Positions 1 through 6,421 of a DNA stretch of 64,000 bases are shown piece after piece. Made by a program: the position numbers and the translations under genes. The DNA is from Candidatus Rifleibacteriota bacterium (GTDB taxonomy: Bacteria; Muiribacteriota; Ozemobacteria; Ozemobacterales; Ozemobacteraceae), in contig JADFZL010000003.1 of the NCBI GenBank assembly GCA_015232575.1, forward strand, positions 1 through 64,000, read 5' to 3'. A model generated the notes under the pieces. The model worked only from the letters and a program-made list of their open reading frames with translations, was not told the origin of the DNA and searched no databases. Positions within the stretch are counted from its first letter, which is position 1. Each line of letters begins with the position of its first letter.

Positions 1-386
1 GGATCGATTGCGGAAATATACAATTTAATTGCAATATTGGAATTGGGACTGGTTGTTTTTGTGGCACTGGCTTAACAATTGCTGGTTGTGGTTGGGCAAC
101 TTGCTTTTATAATACATCTTCAAAGTCGATTAAGTGTGATTACACCGATATAAATATCCTTTGCAACATTGAAAAAATGTGTATACAGGCTTGGAAGCGT
201 ATCGGCTCGAATGAATGGGGAATCGGTCCTTATGCAGAAGAAGTATCTTCCATGCTCGGACTTGGAACGCCACAATTCATACCTTCACTCGACGGCGTTG
301 CTTTGCGGGCTATTCAGGAGCTTTCCTGTAAGAACAAATCGCTTGAAGAAAGAATCAAACTTCTGGAAGAAAAATTAGCGGCGTAA
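1..386 (+). CDS. C-terminal fragment of a phage tail fibre/tail spike-like protein (5' end outside the window)
   Basis: Frame 3 is open from position 3 to a TAA at 384-386 with no stop. The Cys-rich segment (CGNIQFNCNIGIGTGCFCGTG...) is followed by ...LDGVALRAIQELSCKNKSLEERIKLLEEKL, which resembles the coiled-coil C-terminus of peptidase S74 intramolecular chaperone domains of phage fibres. Confidence 0.35.
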   Translation, partial: IDCGNIQFNCNIGIGTGCFCGTGLTIAGCGWATCFYNTSSKSIKCDYTDINILCNIEKMCIQAWKRIGSNEWGIGPYAEEVSSMLGLGTPQFIPSLDGVALRAIQELSCKNKSLEERIKLLEEKLAA

Positions 387-456
387 ACGCAACGTTTATG
401 ATATAATTTATACATAAAATATTTAAACATAAAATAAATTACATGGAGGCGTTAAA

Positions 457-783
457 ATGGCACTTAGAAAGACTATTCTGAGATCTGAAAATCGTGTTGG
501 TGGATTGTTTTCAAACGGTTATTTCCGCATTCTGGAATCAAATGTTGACCGCAGAAACAACAAATGGAGAATCCGCGTCGGTGGCTTCGCAGATGAAGAG
601 GCGCGGCGTTTGGCTTCTAACCAGCCGAATATGATGGGCGAAGACCAGCGTATTGTTTCTGACAAATGGTATGAAGCGCCTGTAACAAACAGCACTTCTA
701 TTGCTGACGCTTATGCTTATCTGAAAACACAGCCAGACTTTGCCACCGCTGCTGATGTTCTTGAAGAAGGGCAGGAAGCATAA
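457..783 (+). CDS. hypothetical protein, first gene of the coupled moron operon
   Basis: 108-aa ORF. Its TAA overlaps the next gene's ATG (TAATG at 781-785). No recognisable motif. Confidence 0.4.
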   Translation: MALRKTILRSENRVGGLFSNGYFRILESNVDRRNNKWRIRVGGFADEEARRLASNQPNMMGEDQRIVSDKWYEAPVTNSTSIADAYAYLKTQPDFATAADVLEEGQEA

Positions 784-1745
784 TGAGAAAAATTCTTTTC
801 AGAACAAATGGCGGACTTGGAAAACAGATCATGGCGACTGCAATTGCAGCACAGATCAAGAAACAGTATCCTGATTCGGTGTTGCATGTTGTAACATCTT
901 ACCCTGAAGCCTTCGCACATCTTGATTGTGTAGACAAGTATTTTCCCGGCAATCCACAGCCTTACTTTTACGATGAACACAAGGACTTTGAAATCCTTGA
1001 TGCTGAACCGTATACCGATCTTGAATACCGTCAAGGTAAGATGCACCTGGTTGATGTCTGGTGCAAGAAACTTGGCCTGAATTTCCCGCAAGAAAAGCGC
1101 GGATACATTAACCTTACTTCTGGTGAAAAGGGAATGGCTGCAAAAATGCTCGGCAATATCCCGCAAGATAAACCGATCATTGCTTTCCAGTTCAGGGGCG
1201 GAACAAGTTACTATGACCCTAACGCAGCAAATGACCCGTTACGCGCAAAGCAGACACGCGACCTTGATATCGAAACCGCTCAGAAGGTTGTTAATGCTCT
1301 TATCGCTAAGGGCTGCATCATTCTTCAGATTGGCTTACCCACTGAACCAAAATTGCAGAATGTTTTAAACCTCGACCCGAATAACGTTATTAACCCGCGT
1401 TTACTTTTTGCGCTTCTTGATCGTTGTCAGGGGCTTCTTGCAATTGATTCATTCGCGGCTCATGCGTGGGCAGCTCTCGGAAGAAAAGACAGCGCTGTCA
1501 TTCTTTGGGGCGGCACGAATCCGACAAATCTTTCTTATGCAGGGCACAGCGCCTTAACATCAGAAAAAGGGAAAGATTGTCCGATGCTGCATTGTAATCG
1601 ACCAGAAACCTTTGTTGGCGACTTCGTAGGAAATAACCAGCCGTGGGCATGTCCGAGAAATGGCATCTGCATGAAATTCGACCCGGTTATGATCGTTGAA
1701 GCCGTTATTGGTTCCATCGCTGACAGCGTGAAGGACAAGAAGTAA
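783..1745 (+). CDS. glycosyltransferase family 9 (heptosyltransferase-like) protein
   Basis: N-terminal MRKILFRTNGGLGKQIMATAIAAQIKKQYPDSVLHVVT and C-terminal LLAIDSFAAHAWAALGRKDSAVILWGGTNP match the GT9 signatures (GD...P-rich N-term; DSGxxHlAaAlGtPtvaLfGpT). It overlaps the following ORF by 1 nt. Confidence 0.6.
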   Translation: MRKILFRTNGGLGKQIMATAIAAQIKKQYPDSVLHVVTSYPEAFAHLDCVDKYFPGNPQPYFYDEHKDFEILDAEPYTDLEYRQGKMHLVDVWCKKLGLNFPQEKRGYINLTSGEKGMAAKMLGNIPQDKPIIAFQFRGGTSYYDPNAANDPLRAKQTRDLDIETAQKVVNALIAKGCIILQIGLPTEPKLQNVLNLDPNNVINPRLLFALLDRCQGLLAIDSFAAHAWAALGRKDSAVILWGGTNPTNLSYAGHSALTSEKGKDCPMLHCNRPETFVGDFVGNNQPWACPRNGICMKFDPVMIVEAVIGSIADSVKDKK

Positions 1746-2413
1746 TGTCGAAACAATGCGGAATGGGCATAAACAAAGATGATGCAATGGCTGAATCTAT
1801 CAAAAAACTGTTTGCCGAAAATAGATTCAGCCGTATAATCGAATGCGGAACATTCAACGGATTAGGTTCAACATCGCGTTTCTGTGAGCAAATAAAAGAT
1901 AATCCTATCCCGTTCTTTTCAATCGAAGTGAATACTTTTTATTATGCCATGGCACATCAGAATTTGCGCAAAGCTGGATTAAAGAACCTTGTAACGCTAA
2001 TCAACGGGCTTTCAGTTCCAAGAAATCTTCTCCCGAAAAAAGAAGAAATCGACTTATCAATTGCTTATTCTGACTTCATGAACGCTGAAGACCCGAAACA
2101 GCCTTACCTCGACGAAGTAGATTTCAATGTTCTTGATGACGTTCTTGGAGAATTATATCAGACGGATTATGAGCAAGAAAACGAATTACTCTTTCTCGAC
2201 AGCGCCGGGCACATGGGCTGGATTGAATTTCAGTATGCAATATCTCTGGCCAGAAAGAACAAAACTATTATTCTTGACGACACCAATCACATTAAGCATT
2301 TCAAATCAATGCAGCACATCAGGCAACACCCGAAAATATTCACTATCATTGAAGAGAATCCAGACAGGCACGGTTTTGCAATAATAAAGTATCATCCGGA
2401 GCAAACAAAATGA
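1745..2413 (+). CDS. class I SAM-dependent methyltransferase, Methyltransf_24/CmcI-like (putative sugar O-methyltransferase)
   Basis: IIECGTFNGLGSTSRF (G-x-G-S nucleotide-binding loop) and LFLDSAGHMGW...TIILDDTNH resemble the cephalosporin-hydroxylase/TylF-type O-methyltransferase family. Its stop overlaps the next start (ATGA). Confidence 0.45.
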   Translation: MSKQCGMGINKDDAMAESIKKLFAENRFSRIIECGTFNGLGSTSRFCEQIKDNPIPFFSIEVNTFYYAMAHQNLRKAGLKNLVTLINGLSVPRNLLPKKEEIDLSIAYSDFMNAEDPKQPYLDEVDFNVLDDVLGELYQTDYEQENELLFLDSAGHMGWIEFQYAISLARKNKTIILDDTNHIKHFKSMQHIRQHPKIFTIIEENPDRHGFAIIKYHPEQTK

Positions 2414-3195
2414 TAAAGTCAGTTTTTCTTCTTTCGCTTGTTTTGACAATACCGCTTTTGGTTAATCCTTCAGAAGCAAACTGGAGCGGTATTTATCTTT
2501 CTATTTACGGGAACTGGGTATTTTTGTTGTTAGTTCTTTATGCAAGCTGGTTCTTTATTGAAAGAATCAGACATGAAAAGATGAAAGCCTTTTTCGGACT
2601 TCGGAATAATACCGTAACGGCGGTAATCGGATTGGTTGAAACACCAGAGGACAGAGGTAAAAAGATTCCACTGGTTTCTTTCAATGAATTCAAAATAGCA
2701 CTTTCCATCGGTGAAATCTTTTCCTTCAAGCTATCTCAGCTTGGCGATAATCCTCCTGGCTGGTTAAGCCAGATCGTATTTAATCCAATTGAGTATAAAA
2801 TAGCATTTTCGGAATATCTGAAGAATGATTGTAGCACAATCCTTTTTGGAACAAGGCAATTTAATAAAACTGCTGAACTTGTAGAACGTTCCTTAAATTC
2901 ATTGATTCAAACAGATGTAAACGGTAATGATGAAGCATTTTTCTTCGTAGGCGGAAACAAATACACGGATCTTAATCATTCATTTGTTCAAAGAATCCGG
3001 CTCAAAAATGGAGGCTTTGTTTTTCAAATCGCAGGGAATTCGGATGAATCAACGTCTGCTGCAAGTATTTATCTGAAAAGAAACTGGATGAAACTCTTAG
3101 AAATACATGGTGCAGAAAATGACTTTGCTGTAATTCTGAAAAATACTCCCGGTAATATTTTTGAGTGTGAAAAATTGGCTGCTGTAATGCCTTGA
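2410..3195 (+). CDS. hypothetical membrane protein (two N-terminal TM helices)
   Basis: Hydrophobic N-terminus (VFLLSLVLTIPLLV...WVFLLLVLYASWFFI). Translationally coupled to the methyltransferase. Confidence 0.4.
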   Translation: MIKSVFLLSLVLTIPLLVNPSEANWSGIYLSIYGNWVFLLLVLYASWFFIERIRHEKMKAFFGLRNNTVTAVIGLVETPEDRGKKIPLVSFNEFKIALSIGEIFSFKLSQLGDNPPGWLSQIVFNPIEYKIAFSEYLKNDCSTILFGTRQFNKTAELVERSLNSLIQTDVNGNDEAFFFVGGNKYTDLNHSFVQRIRLKNGGFVFQIAGNSDESTSAASIYLKRNWMKLLEIHGAENDFAVILKNTPGNIFECEKLAAVMP

Positions 3196-3204
3196 GGTGA
3201 AAGA

Positions 3205-3687
3205 ATGAATGTTGTTCTGATGAAAACAAAATCGGATTGTGAAATTGCTGCTATAGCAACGGCTTGCTCTGTCAGTTATGATAGGGCGAAGAAAGCAATC
3301 GCCTGGAAAGATTTGCCAGGTGAGCTTGAAAATCCGATTTATGGCAATCCGGAAAATCTTTATCTGGCGCTTATAAAGCTGGGATTCTGGAAAAAGAATA
3401 TTGTACTTTCTGATCTTCTTTCCGGAAAGGCAACGCCAGGGAAAACCATAGTTCTGATTCACAAGCCTACAAATCCGATTTCTCAACAACATTGGGTTGT
3501 CTGGGCCGGAAAAAACGACAAAGGTAAACATTTATTTTACTGGGGCGATTCTGAAAAGCCAGTAACGGTATCGGAAAAATCATTATCTGATTACTACTGC
3601 AAAGGCTGGCCAAATTGCGCTTTTGAAGTTTATAAAGCGTCGATATGGCAGTTACTTTGGCAAAAGTTTTTAAGATTATTCGAATAA
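3205..3687 (+). CDS. papain-fold cysteine peptidase, C39-like domain protein
   Basis: TKSDCEIAAIATACSV (putative Cys nucleophile) with a downstream QQHWVVWAG (His), typical of C39_2/BtrH-like domains. It follows 2410..3195 by 9 nt. Confidence 0.4.
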   Translation: MNVVLMKTKSDCEIAAIATACSVSYDRAKKAIAWKDLPGELENPIYGNPENLYLALIKLGFWKKNIVLSDLLSGKATPGKTIVLIHKPTNPISQQHWVVWAGKNDKGKHLFYWGDSEKPVTVSEKSLSDYYCKGWPNCAFEVYKASIWQLLWQKFLRLFE

Positions 3688-3787
3688 ACAATTTAAAGGA
3701 GGCTGACATGCTGGAAATCCTTTCAATTTCGTTTTGTGCACTATTTGCAACCTGGATTCGTCTGGAACTATGGTAAGGGACTAACCA

Positions 3788-4108
3788 ATGACAACGTTTC
3801 TTGCAGCACTTGATAAATACTTGATACAGCAGTTTTTAAACAATACACCATCATTAATTTTGCTCATGATAGCAGTTATTTGTCTCGCTGTTATTGTGAC
3901 TATGCGGGTAAACAAGGCTATCAACAAAGAAGGCGAACAAAACAGCAGAATTGAAATCGTTGAGAAACAGCAGCATAAATCAGAACAGGTTATTTCGGCC
4001 TGTCCATGCATAAGTAAAGAAAATGCAACATGGCTGCAAGATAAAGAAAGAAATGGCGGAAAGCCACCGGAAGCGGTGAAATGTCCATTTCAGAAAGGAA
4101 CTGCATGA
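3788..4108 (+). CDS. putative holin (single TM helix, charged C-terminus)
   Basis: 106 aa with one TM helix (LILLMIAVICLAVIVTM). The stop overlaps the ATG of the endolysin (ATGA at 4105-4108). Confidence 0.3.
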   Translation: MTTFLAALDKYLIQQFLNNTPSLILLMIAVICLAVIVTMRVNKAINKEGEQNSRIEIVEKQQHKSEQVISACPCISKENATWLQDKERNGGKPPEAVKCPFQKGTA

Positions 4109-4548
4109 AATCAAAACATTTCAGACTTGAAGAGTTTTTCAGTAAAGATTTTTTCAATAAATGGCACAAAAAGCCAAATTACCTATGGGGATTGTTGGAT
4201 TCAAGATTGCTTATTTCGTGTGAAAGATTGCGCGAAAGATACGGTGTCTGCAAAATTAATGATTGGATTTTTGGCGGTCACTTCAAAGCATCTGGGTTCA
4301 GAGAAGACGAATGCCGTATTGGTGCTGAATTGTCACAACATAGATTCGGGAGAGCTGCGGATCTGAAATTTGAAGGTGTTACTCCGGAAGAAATCAGAAA
4401 AGACATGCGCAAGAAAGCTTCAATGAATCCTGATATGACAACATTTCAACTTATAACTTGCGTTGAAGATGGAACTGATACCTGGCTTCATATAGACGTA
4501 AGAAACCATGACTGCGATGGTATTCTCTGGATTCCGAAAACTAAGTAA
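4105..4548 (+). CDS. endolysin, peptidase M15A (D-Ala-D-Ala carboxypeptidase/L-alanyl-D-glutamate peptidase-like)
   Basis: FRLEEF...SGFR...HRFGRAADL...WLHID matches the zinc-binding H-x6-D...H motif set of the M15/VanY-type phage lysins. The start is chosen at 4105, coupled to the holin. Confidence 0.6.
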   Translation: MKSKHFRLEEFFSKDFFNKWHKKPNYLWGLLDSRLLISCERLRERYGVCKINDWIFGGHFKASGFREDECRIGAELSQHRFGRAADLKFEGVTPEEIRKDMRKKASMNPDMTTFQLITCVEDGTDTWLHIDVRNHDCDGILWIPKTK

Positions 4549-4563
4549 AAAAAAGGAGGCAGT

Positions 4564-4995
4564 ATGCAGGAAATTCTTAATGAAGTAATAAAGGTTGTAA
4601 TAATCGTTATGATTCCAATTGTAGGTAAAATTCTTAACATTCTTGTTGGGAAACTTATTGAATGGGTTGAAAGCAAAACCCACAATGAAAATCTGAAAAC
4701 CCTCGAACATGAAGCAGGTGAGGTTATTCTTGCCGTCGAAGGAAATATTGTATCAGGAGCAAGAAAAGCGTTTTCTGATGGTAAGATAACTCAGCAGGAA
4801 CTTGAAGACATTTACATTGACGCGAAGCATATTGCGACAAATCAAATTAAAGAAAGACTTAAAACTTTTCCGGGGATTTTTGCTGCAAGTGTCGAAGGCA
4901 AACTAACCGATCTGGTTGAAGCTCAGCTAATTAAGCAGAAAACAATTGGAGCAATCGTAAACCCTCGGCCAGCCCAGTCATCACCGGCAGCATAA
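4564..4995 (+). CDS. membrane-anchored coiled-coil protein of the lysis cassette (spanin- or holin-like)
   Basis: N-terminal TM helix (VIKVVIIVMIPIVGKILNILVG) followed by a helical, charged periplasmic region. Its position directly after the endolysin is typical of i-spanins. Confidence 0.25.
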   Translation: MQEILNEVIKVVIIVMIPIVGKILNILVGKLIEWVESKTHNENLKTLEHEAGEVILAVEGNIVSGARKAFSDGKITQQELEDIYIDAKHIATNQIKERLKTFPGIFAASVEGKLTDLVEAQLIKQKTIGAIVNPRPAQSSPAA

Positions 4996-5255
4996 AGCAA
5001 GATGGTGGAAGTCTCGGATTAAAAACCCGTGATGCCTGGGCAAGGCTAAACATCGGAAATCACAAACCCGAATTTGAGATAGGATTCAGCAAGCAGTTTT
5101 AAGAGTTCAAAAATACCTCCATGTTCTCCCCTGGTGAAATCCGGGGGAGTTTTAATTTTCGGAAAAAGTAATCTATTATTTCGGAGTGTGTTAGAGAAAA
5201 TGTTAGAAGTGATTTTACGTGCTCTTGAAACCTGCATCTGATCTAAAAAATAGAA

Positions 5256-5329
5256 TGCGCCTATCTGGACTCGAACCAGAGGCCCCAGGATTAGGAATCC
5301 TGTGCTCTATCCACCTGAGCTATAGGCGC
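5256..5329 (-). tRNA. tRNA-Arg (anticodon CCT)
   Basis: Minus-strand read: GCGCCTA-TA-GCTCAGGTGGATAGAGC-A-CAGGA-TTCCTAA-TCCTG-GGGCC-TCTGGTTCGAGTCCAGA-TAGGCGC-A. It has a 7-bp acceptor stem, D arm, anticodon loop UU-CCU-AA and T-loop GTTCGAGTC. No CCA is encoded. Confidence 0.85.
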
Positions 5330-5458
5330 ACTAACGTCAAACATAATACTTGTTTTTTCGTTGATGGTCAAGTATATTTTAAACTTCCAGACGAAGAATA
5401 TTGCTTACATTGTTAAATAGAAGTTCAGGAAAATAAAAAACTTGCAGGGAGAAATATA

Positions 5459-6421
5459 ATGGTAGAAAACACTTCACAGGAAGAGAAAATAATAATCATC
5501 GGGTCAGGGCCTTCCGGATTAACAGCAGCAATTTATGCGGCAAGAGCTGGATTGTCCCCTCTGTTGATAGAGGGCTTCCAATCTGGGGGGCAACCAGGCG
5601 GACAGCTTATGACAACTACAGAGGTCGAAAATTTTCCAGGTTTTGAAAATGGAATAATGGGACCTGAACTGATTGAAAGAATAAAGGCACAGGCACAGCG
5701 ATTTCAAACTCGTTTTGTTTCGGAAGATATTGAAAAAGTCGATTTTACTTCTAAACCATTCTCACTTTTCAGCGGAAGCAAAACATGGAAAACTCATTGC
5801 CTGATTATTGCCACTGGCGCTTCAGCAAACATTCTTGATCATCCGGCTGTGAAAAAATACTGGGGCAAAGGAATCTCAGCCTGCGCAACCTGTGACGGTG
5901 CCCTTCCTGTATTTCGCAATAAACCTATCTGCGTAATCGGTGGTGGTGACTCAGCCATTGAGGAAGCACAATTCCTTTCGAGATTTGCTTCGAGAATCTA
6001 TCTGATTCATCGCCGGGATAAATTTCGTGCAAGTAAGGCAATGCAGGATAAGCTTTTAAGCAACAGTAAAATTGAGGCAGTTTTTGATTCAGTAATAGAA
6101 GATATTTCAGGCAGTAACTTTGTTGAAATCGTGAAAGTAAAGAATGTCAACACCGGCCAGATAACTGAAATTCAGGCAAAGGGTATATTCATGGCAATCG
6201 GACACACCCCGAATACAGCATTCCTGAATAATTCGCTTGAACTCGACGAAAAGAAATATATCCGCGTTAAACACCCCACAACAGCTACTTCTGTTGATGG
6301 AGTGTTTGCATGCGGAGATGTTACAGATCCACGTTACCGACAGGCAATTTCAGCCGCCGGTTCCGGGTGCTGTGCCGCGCTTGATGCAGAAAAATGGCTC
6401 AGCGAAAAGGGAATTGAATAA
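5459..6421 (+). CDS. trxB: thioredoxin-disulfide reductase
   Basis: IIIIGSGPSGLTAAIYAARAG FAD-binding motif, redox-active CATCDG, and a second GGGDSA NADPH-binding motif. SD GGGAG lies 9 nt upstream. Confidence 0.85.
   Translation: MVENTSQEEKIIIIGSGPSGLTAAIYAARAGLSPLLIEGFQSGGQPGGQLMTTTEVENFPGFENGIMGPELIERIKAQAQRFQTRFVSEDIEKVDFTSKPFSLFSGSKTWKTHCLIIATGASANILDHPAVKKYWGKGISACATCDGALPVFRNKPICVIGGGDSAIEEAQFLSRFASRIYLIHRRDKFRASKAMQDKLLSNSKIEAVFDSVIEDISGSNFVEIVKVKNVNTGQITEIQAKGIFMAIGHTPNTAFLNNSLELDEKKYIRVKHPTTATSVDGVFACGDVTDPRYRQAISAAGSGCCAALDAEKWLSEKGIE

Follow-up and report, generated by a model that had tools for sequence, protein, structure and literature searches.

We analysed a stretch of 64,000 nucleotides from a Candidatus Rifleibacteriota contig (JADFZL010000003.1, positions 1 to 64,000; hereafter the window) and concentrated on five open reading frames (ORFs), A to E, at positions 457-3687. 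The region is a nested accessory island and not one moron operon, with the order fibre -> [A -> B -> [C -> D]] -> E -> holin -> endolysin, and the island sits inside the late operon of a lambdoid Riflebacteria prophage. Protein B is a divergent protein of the glycosyltransferase 9 (GT9) fold that keeps the nucleotide-sugar-binding residues. A GT9-like enzyme paired with a sugar-capping enzyme is a recurrent viral module, and the B-C pair of the window is one version of it. We tentatively favour the interpretation that this is a late-expressed module that would glycosylate and methylate the phage's own tail fibre, by analogy with TibC and Aah, the bacterial autotransporter heptosyltransferases (BAHT).

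Structure and transcription of the island

ORFs A to E are tightly coupled on the + strand, between the end of a giant S74-type tail fibre gene and a holin/M15-endolysin cassette. This is the tRNA-Arg edge of a Riflebacteria prophage, and the window opens inside the prophage. A preliminary description of the DNA had placed five coupled ORFs between a tail fibre and the holin and endolysin genes, and the ORF coordinates and junction sequences confirm that position. A and B meet in TAATG (781-785), B and C in a second TAATG (1743-1747), and C and D in ATGA (2410-2413); D and E are separated by a 9-nt gap with a GAGGTG ribosome-binding site. Such coupling is typical of phage late operons and hence is not unusual in itself. 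All five ORFs are present, but the preliminary description had named only four products and left A undescribed. The fibre end and the five genes are as follows.

3-386, + strand: C-terminal end of the tail fibre, with a Cys/Gly-rich distal tip and then an S74-type intramolecular chaperone
457-783, + strand: A, 108 aa, small fibre-associated protein (phrog_18037, unknown function; homologues after fibre genes)
783-1745, + strand: B, 320 aa, divergent GT9-fold glycosyltransferase (donor motif, Lys14, CX4C...CX5C cluster)
1745-2413, + strand: C, 222 aa, predicted class-I S-adenosylmethionine (SAM)-dependent O-methyltransferase, Methyltransf_24/3-like (family motifs, profile against PDB)
2410-3195, + strand: D, 261 aa, orphan membrane-anchored protein (hydropathy; no family match)
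3205-3687, + strand: E, 160 aa, stand-alone papain-fold cysteine peptidase, C39/PeiR-like (conserved Cys12/His96, C-terminal amphipathic helix)

B is identical (100 %) to HQM10_05040, encoded on a 558-kb contig of a Candidatus Riflebacteria metagenome-assembled genome (MAG).

The nesting follows from two kinds of relative. Some related contigs run from a giant fibre through A, B and E to a holin-like protein and an endolysin, and lack C and D. In other relatives E (46-58 % identity) directly follows the giant fibre in the absence of A and B, and homologues of the lysis genes G or H (described below) come next. A goes with the fibre, and the close clade keeps the order fibre, A, B; C and D are a further insertion; and E is fixed at the fibre/lysis junction even where B is absent. 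These arrangements contradict the earlier view of the five ORFs as a single moron operon. The preliminary description had proposed a check for homologous operons at the same junction in other phages; the order A-B-E recurs there, and C and D are missing. B homologues at 47-58 % identity are found in contigs binned to different phyla. The contrast in base composition agrees with a mosaic make-up: the GC content is 45.9 % in A and B (GC at third codon positions, 0.45 in B), 39.2 % in C, 36.4 % in D, 38-39.5 % in E to I and 38.9 % in the host. Judging from this composition, the A-B block may have been acquired more recently than its neighbours or from a different source.

A terminator scan of positions 1-5500 found no intrinsic terminator between A-E and the holin and endolysin genes, and the only strong terminator from the fibre to the prophage edge is at 5126-5159. 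Between E and G we detected no structured element, nor was any internal promoter convincing. For these reasons A to E are most simply read as late transcripts. With no terminator before the lysis genes, expression in a lysogen, which serotype conversion would need, is doubtful.

Protein B, its partners and the cysteine-rich fibre

B matched nothing in Pfam (E <= 1), NCBIfam or PADLOC, and none of the 120 homologues listed for it carries a precomputed Pfam domain. The Glyco_transf_9 profile gave no significant match to B, and the profile of the B family reached WaaF only with an E-value of 0.095. The preliminary description had proposed that its assignments be checked by profile search. Taken literally the searches fail it, since the Pfam GT9 and C39 profiles returned nothing and Methyltransf_24 remained below threshold; the assignments are rescued by structure. 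The GT-B fold of B is nearest to known GT9 structures, which bears out the GT9-like call at the level of the fold. The donor motif of the C-lobe (IDSFAAH...LWGG.NP) is kept, and IDSFAAHAWAALG...LWGGTNP aligns with the nucleotide-sugar-binding motif DSGLMHVAAAL...LYGPSSP of WaaF. D222, S223 and H227 are present in 138/138 aligned homologues, and together with R159, Q136 and G139 they are invariant across about 140 homologues. The N-lobe, with its first Rossmann strand at residues 3-7 of the 320, has invariant residues of its own (Y77, H88, W93 and E115). Four cysteines (C266, C271, C290 and C296) form a CX4C...CX5C cluster in a loop-rich insertion of the C-lobe before the last helix, and the cluster is complete in 33 of 34 members of the close clade. 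B belongs to a GT9-fold family that Pfam misses; BFVD contains phage proteins of the same fold, labelled RfaF or Aah/TibC and uncharacterised.

C is predicted from its sequence to be a class-I SAM-dependent O-methyltransferase, translationally coupled to B. SAM motif I (E33-x-G35-T36-x-x-G39-x-G41) and the acidic E61 at the end of beta2 are invariant, and the family as a whole shares ExGTxxGxGxT, E61, LDSAG and LDDxxHxKH. The C family profile matches cation-dependent O-methyltransferases in the PDB (3ntv, 2e-7; YrrM, 1e-5; also COMT-type enzymes). The earlier call of a SAM-dependent O-methyltransferase of the Methyltransf_24 type was thus sound as to the class of enzyme, on family motifs and matches to solved O-methyltransferases. 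The Methyltransf_24 profile itself scored C at 16.4 bits (E 0.017), below the Pfam gathering threshold of 26.3, and matched 2 of 32 members of the C family (best 4e-6); a few members match Methyltransf_24 or RMNT_CmcI. Gene context, namely neighbouring B-family and GT2 glycosyltransferases and a homologue within a large glycan-synthesis cluster, suggests that the acceptor is probably a sugar hydroxyl, which would make C a sugar O-methyltransferase.

Homologues of A (30-34 % identity) directly follow the fibre in three related loci (L001-L003), and two A paralogues are present in L004 and L008; A-like proteins thus follow fibre genes, can be duplicated, and in relatives precede B. The proteins of about 110 aa that precede distant B genes are similar to A in position only (hhalign probability <1 %), and homology to them was rejected. 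D had been described as a small membrane protein, which does not fit its 261 residues: hydropathy indicates two N-terminal hydrophobic segments followed by a cytoplasmic domain of about 200 aa. D has 76 homologues among 1.8 billion representatives, and even at family level it has no match in Pfam, PADLOC or the PDB. It is absent from all related loci compared, and both a metagenome scan with D and a tblastn search of isolated phages were empty. D is an orphan that came in with C. None of C, D and E matched any of 50,697 deposited phage records. We considered C, D or E as parts of a defence system and rejected this, since neither these proteins nor the D family had a PADLOC match.

The B family is largely viral, with a relative encoded in 172 IMG/VR loci. 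GTDB genomes contribute a further 66 loci; many of these genomes are MAGs of Flavipsychrobacter or Chitinophagaceae, in which there are several loci apiece. We counted the neighbours within four genes of 157 B instances. A sulfotransferase (Pfam 8e-16) was near B in 61 of the 157, mostly as the next gene; an FkbM methyltransferase (Pfam 4e-19) in 26, of which 13 were fused to B; and an adenosine 5'-phosphosulfate (APS) kinase in 22. A protein of at least 450 aa was encoded within three genes upstream of B in 88/157. Where these upstream neighbours could be annotated in viruses they were tail-spike or other virion structural proteins, or S74 fibres, and the B family lies in structural modules, some of them of lytic phages and on jumbo-sized contigs. 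In the cellular loci the upstream proteins are NHL-repeat proteins sorted by the type IX secretion system (T9SS) and unknown proteins of about 1200 aa.

The C family is found in 58 IMG/VR loci. In at least six other viral contigs C comes directly after a B-family gene and overlaps it by 4 nt, and a sulfotransferase is often next. In about 30 other loci C stands among glycosyltransferase-like genes, between a fibre-like gene and putative portal or head genes, which were called by judgement from sequence, Pfam giving no match for them. The recurrent B-C pair, and the adjacency or fusion of B-family genes to methyl- and sulfotransferases, support the earlier proposal that B and C jointly make a methylated sugar. 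A literature search found no paper describing the B-C module, and no relevant work that connects GT9 or sulfotransferase genes of phages with tail fibres.

The donor of B would most plausibly be ADP-heptose, by analogy with the setting of a family member next to heptose genes. This member, gp154 of the lytic T4-like cyanomyovirus S-CAM3, is a true B-family protein (hhalign 98.9 %) encoded between two tail-fibre genes, in a cluster that also holds an ADP-heptose synthase, a phosphoheptose isomerase (GmhA), a nucleoside diphosphate (NDP)-sugar epimerase and a Nol-like carbamoyltransferase. The same cluster (L157; NC_031906.1, 103664-116428) includes a cysteine dioxygenase, and its non-enzyme genes are annotated only as hypothetical.

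Two further settings of these families are recorded here as observations. Fusions of B-family and FkbM domains, of about 545 aa and often followed by a sulfotransferase, occur in L091, L095, L097, L098, L100, L106, L110, L117, L124, L125, L144 and L153. These Flavipsychrobacter and Chitinophagaceae loci, several per genome, lie next to genes for NHL-repeat proteins and for Cys-rich proteins that are about 1200 aa long and have repeats like those of the UspA1 head; they may be a cellular adhesin-glycosylation system or unrecognised prophage regions. On a 590-kb ENA contig (L155, 1-16666), probably of a giant virus or jumbo phage, a C-family methyltransferase lies in a very large glycan-synthesis cluster with GT47, GT2 and GT25 enzymes, two FkbM proteins and Methyltransf_14, where inteins interrupt a methyltransferase and a DegT aminotransferase.

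The presence of B tracks a particular class of fibre. Positions 3-386 match the C-termini of Peptidase_S74 fibres of 1781-2227 aa (tblastn, jackhmmer), and alignment of the cleavage site shows that the window fibre keeps an intact Ser...Lys(+5) autocleavage dyad (TSSKSIK). The fibre fragment in the window is 7.9 % Cys. Within the close clade, fibres of phages with B have 2.4-5.6 % Cys overall and 5.7-15 % in the distal 300 residues, against 0.3-0.8 % and 0.7-1.0 % in related phages without B, although this contrast is between 6 and 5 fibres, which may simply share ancestry. Across the whole family, the median Cys content of large proteins encoded no more than three genes upstream of B is 2.24 %, compared with 1.14 % for the remaining large proteins of those loci (Mann-Whitney p 2e-11, from loci that are not independent) and 1.22 % for large proteins in viral loci without B. 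At least 2.5 % Cys is reached by 40 % of the proteins upstream of B and by 3 % of those in viral loci without B, and the richest upstream proteins reach 5-7 %. Repeats of the STIGGGxxN type are present in the upstream proteins and match the beta-roll head of UspA1, a trimeric autotransporter adhesin (a viral example gave E 9e-14 and a cellular one 2e-9, values to be taken with caution in repetitive sequences). That B tracks Cys-rich adhesin-like fibres points at least as strongly to the virion as to the host lipopolysaccharide (LPS).

The distal tips of these fibres are extremely rich in Cys and Gly (for example LCVCGAVCATSG...CACDGC...CNYTCACGCLCVGY), with Cys up to 15 % just before the S74 cleavage site; such richness is odd for a protein folded in the cytoplasm. 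Tips of this kind are encoded at 3-386 of the window and in L001 (4272-9617), L002 (2917-9600), L003 (4136-9550), L008 (327-6653) and L011 (88-6189).

Possible acceptors of the sugar

According to the interpretation that we tentatively favour, B would act in the cytoplasm late in the lytic cycle and attach a sugar to the Cys/Gly-rich tip of the fibre or to A. The sugar would most plausibly be heptose from ADP-heptose. C would then O-methylate the sugar added by B, a role that a sulfotransferase would take in other phages, and the progeny would carry glycosylated fibres. Late timing, the occurrence of the family in lytic and jumbo phages, and the link to one class of fibre in both phage and cellular loci suit virion assembly better than lysogenic conversion. 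A precedent is given by the GT9-fold autotransporter heptosyltransferases, which act on an adjacent adhesin, and on all these grounds we favour cytoplasmic modification of the fibre, or of A, by B.

A wider form of this proposal is possible, and we hold it with less confidence. The B family could define a widespread, undescribed system by which environmental phages glycosylate their virions, and Chitinophagaceae would have a cellular counterpart. In this system a GT9-fold relative of the autotransporter heptosyltransferases would glycosylate Cys-rich, adhesin-like tail fibres, and the sugar would be capped by sulfation or by methylation, the latter through enzymes of the C type or FkbM. The sugar might even be S-linked to cysteine. 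The phage APS kinase would supply 3'-phosphoadenosine-5'-phosphosulfate (PAPS), and the capped sugar would tune receptor binding or shield the fibre.

Several points weigh against the fibre as acceptor. The choice of the fibre is drawn wholly from gene context and analogy, and the small set of close-clade fibres has already been mentioned. Lys14 of B (GGLGK) aligns with D13 of WaaF, the position of the catalytic Asp, and is Lys in 126 of 129 homologues; gp154 of S-CAM3 has Arg at the equivalent position. The complete four-Cys cluster is found in only 2 of 32 members of the distant B clade. Compared with TibC, B has about 90 residues fewer and lacks the N-terminal beta-barrel. A lies 50 nt downstream of an extended -10 element of perfect sequence (TGATATAAT, 399-407), which makes separate expression possible, and Rho-dependent termination may occur before the lysis genes. 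Finally, one C homologue is encoded beside lipid A and Tol-Pal genes.

Some of these points speak for lysogenic conversion or superinfection exclusion, the purpose that the preliminary description had suggested for the module. At the inner membrane, B would then attach a sugar to a surface glycan of the host, the LPS core or another, C would methylate that sugar, and the receptor of the fibre would be masked in lysogens. The best-known proteins of the GT9 fold are WaaC and WaaF, heptosyltransferases of the LPS core, which is also the acceptor of most characterised GT9 enzymes. Seroconversion genes classically adjoin tailspike genes and co-vary with fibre specificity, so the correlation of B with Cys-rich fibres also fits a target in the host receptor. 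The position beside the fibre and near the attachment (att) site at tRNA-Arg is classical for the conversion genes of P22 and epsilon15, and the fibre/lysis junction is visibly a variable hot spot.

We nevertheless consider conversion unlikely, though it is still a plausible rival. Since there is no terminator between E and the holin and endolysin genes, transcription in a lysogen would run into the lysis genes. The extended -10 motif is no commoner in the window than expected by chance (3 found, 2.5 expected), and its copy at 399-407 shares part of its sequence with a weak hairpin that follows the stop codon of the fibre gene. We rejected a moron promoter ahead of A as a candidate, because neither this motif nor the promoter and terminator scans of 1-5500 showed any enrichment. 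There are no membrane components of the Gtr or Oac type. The B family is common in the structural modules of lytic and jumbo phages and is tied to Cys-rich beta-roll proteins in cellular loci too; its close homologues are spread across phyla, which is hard to reconcile with a single LPS-core acceptor; and the catalytic Asp of GT9 enzymes is replaced by Lys. Overall, the protein assignments of the preliminary description were largely right at the level of the fold, while its interpretation of the operon is only partly supported.

It is improbable that B and C instead alter newly made LPS or another envelope glycan late in the lytic cycle, freeing progeny from debris and blocking superinfection. 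Placement in the late operon agrees with such a function, as does occurrence in lytic phages alongside genes for nucleotide-sugar and PAPS supply, and the cyanophage literature reads such genes as modifiers of the host surface (PMC12801897). A position at the end of the late operon, just before lysis, would leave little time for new LPS to reach the surface, and the specific link to Cys-rich fibres would be unexplained. Very improbable is a non-catalytic B, comparable to the PnsB1 subunit of the plant NADH dehydrogenase-like (NDH) complex, that acts with A as an assembly or folding factor for the Cys-rich fibre while C, D and E are unrelated morons sharing the hot spot by chance: the canonical Asp is missing, the presence of A and B varies with that of the Cys-rich fibre type, and C-D and E are each found without the others, but the donor-site residues are invariant across about 140 homologues, and recurrent fusion or adjacency to methyl- and sulfotransferases and to ADP-heptose or PAPS supply can be understood only if a sugar-transfer pathway is active.

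The usual reading of glycosyltransferases in phages is that they modify DNA or convert the host serotype, and to our knowledge virion glycosylation has been established only for a few mycobacteriophages and chloroviruses. What is new here is a family wired to methyl- and sulfotransferases and to nucleotide-sugar and PAPS supply genes, which tracks Cys-rich adhesin-like fibres. Should the acceptor be the fibre, phages would have a new mechanism that shapes their host range and their evasion of immunity or defence, and that parallels the glycosylation of adhesins in bacteria. Should it be a host glycan, the genes would form a conversion module of a new kind, one lacking Gtr and Oac components.

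Peptidase E, neighbouring genes and known systems

E is a lineage-constant, stand-alone cysteine peptidase, separate from B-C. Its papain-like fold has a conserved catalytic Cys and His (D11-C12 and H96 are invariant), so that the earlier C39-like, papain-fold assignment was correct at the level of the fold. The C39 Pfam profile matched none of 48 E-family members, nor did any other profile. The closest structural match is a viral cell-wall endoisopeptidase, and E resembles the pseudomurein endoisopeptidases (C71) both in fold and in its position at a viral lysis module; similarity to PeiW, PeiP or PeiR was not found at the sequence level. E is always directly upstream of the holin and endolysin in this phage lineage, and in L006 and L216 a G homologue follows it ahead of an Amidase_2 endolysin. 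Fold likeness and position suggest that E is probably an accessory peptide-stem hydrolase belonging with the lysis cassette, although an M15 endolysin is already present in this cassette. In a bacterial host such as this one the wall substrate, if any, would be murein and not pseudomurein. A stand-alone C39/PeiR-like peptidase fixed beside the holin would be an uncharacterised component of the lysis module.

Two other functions for E were rejected. A was considered as its double-glycine-leader substrate (RVGG at residues 13-16), but members of the A family do not share the Gly-Gly, and E is also encoded where A is missing. A trans-acting protease that frees a degenerate S74 chaperone was the other, and it was dismissed because the window fibre and its relatives retain the Ser...Lys(+5) dyad.

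The features between E and the host are the following.

3708-3776, + strand: F, 22-aa, entirely hydrophobic ORF (MLEILSISFCALFATWIRLELW) with a strong Shine-Dalgarno sequence (AAAGGAGG) (sequence, hydropathy)
3788-4108, + strand: G, 106-aa protein with a single transmembrane segment (15-46), holin or spanin-like lysis component
4105-4548, + strand: H, M15-type endolysin (phrog_894 endolysin, 2.7e-20; Peptidase_M15_3, E 0.0011)
4564-4995, + strand: I, 143 aa, N-terminal transmembrane segment (hydropathy 1-33) and coiled-coil tail, strong Shine-Dalgarno sequence, holin or spanin-like
5126-5159, + strand: intrinsic terminator closing the late operon, 9-bp stem with 7 GC pairs and a T-run
5255-5330, - strand: tRNA-Arg(CCT) (ARAGORN)

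F heads the lysis cassette, between E and the holin-like gene; its Shine-Dalgarno sequence is among the strongest of the region, and no counterpart was found in the related loci looked at. The longest ORF for H begins at 4081, and the likely start is the ATG at 4105, which overlaps the stop of G as ATGA. I is the last gene of the late operon. The tRNA-Arg(CCT) gene is the probable integration site at the boundary of prophage and host, and host genes (trxB and others) lie beyond it. In a phage contig that carries B and E, a polysaccharide pyruvyl transferase gene lies between a phage lysozyme and an Amidase_2 gene (L004, 13058-14077; L005, 7243-8262), another sugar-capping enzyme within a lysis cassette.

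Among known systems, PeiR, PeiW and PeiP are viral lytic enzymes (PMC4592898, PMC6189367). These C71 peptidases are encoded with lysis genes, as E is. The C39 domains of ABC exporters such as PCAT1 and ComA differ from E, which stands alone with 160 aa and has no ABC transporter, and whose neighbouring A family has no conserved Gly-Gly; E also differs from both groups in its C-terminal amphipathic helix.

The gtrABC and oac modules of prophages resemble the region in that glycan-modifying genes lie near a fibre or spike gene and the att site. The GtrA flippase, the bactoprenol glycosyltransferase GtrB, GtrC and the acyltransferase Oac are all absent among A-E in Pfam and NCBIfam searches, and A-E are embedded in a late operon upstream of lysis genes.

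WaaC, WaaF and other GT9 enzymes (PDB 2h1f, 1psw and 3tov) share with B the C-lobe donor motif, D-S/T-x-x-x-H followed by G.(T/S).P, and WaaC and WaaF are soluble and cytoplasmic, as B is. B differs from WaaC and WaaF in having no Pfam Glyco_transf_9 match, Lys14 in place of Asp13, other conserved N-lobe residues (H88, E115, Y77 and W93) and an extra four-Cys insertion, and in being viral and linked to fibres rather than to LPS clusters.

In virion glycosylation systems, glycosyltransferases encoded in or beside structural genes act on virion proteins. The chlorovirus PBCV-1 protein A064R reportedly combines glycosyltransferase and sugar O-methyltransferase activities, a pairing that resembles the putative B-C combination and the B-FkbM fusions. 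The mycobacteriophage and chlorovirus systems use different glycosyltransferase families from B, and we know of no GT9-fold enzyme, sulfotransferase partner or tail-fibre target described for them. Glycosylation of the capsid and tail tube of mycobacteriophages is attributed to Freeman et al. (2023) where that work is cited in PMC12619734.

TibC and Aah (PDB 4rap) are encoded beside a large repetitive beta-solenoid adhesin; B adjoins an adhesin-like fibre through the order fibre, A, B. TibC has a GT9-like fold, its gene is beside that of its adhesin substrate, and its N-terminal beta-barrel comprises residues 1-97 (PMC4358343). Its four-Cys iron finger is an insertion in the catalytic domain that contacts the adhesin substrate and helps to recognise it (PMC4358343). 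The spacing of the cysteines differs (C339/C342/C358/C370 in TibC, CX4C...CX5C in B), the B cluster is limited to the close clade, and the presumed substrate of B would be a phage fibre and not an autotransporter. In both proteins, for B within this clade, a four-Cys insertion lies near the C-terminus of the C-lobe, and that of B may resemble a metal finger.

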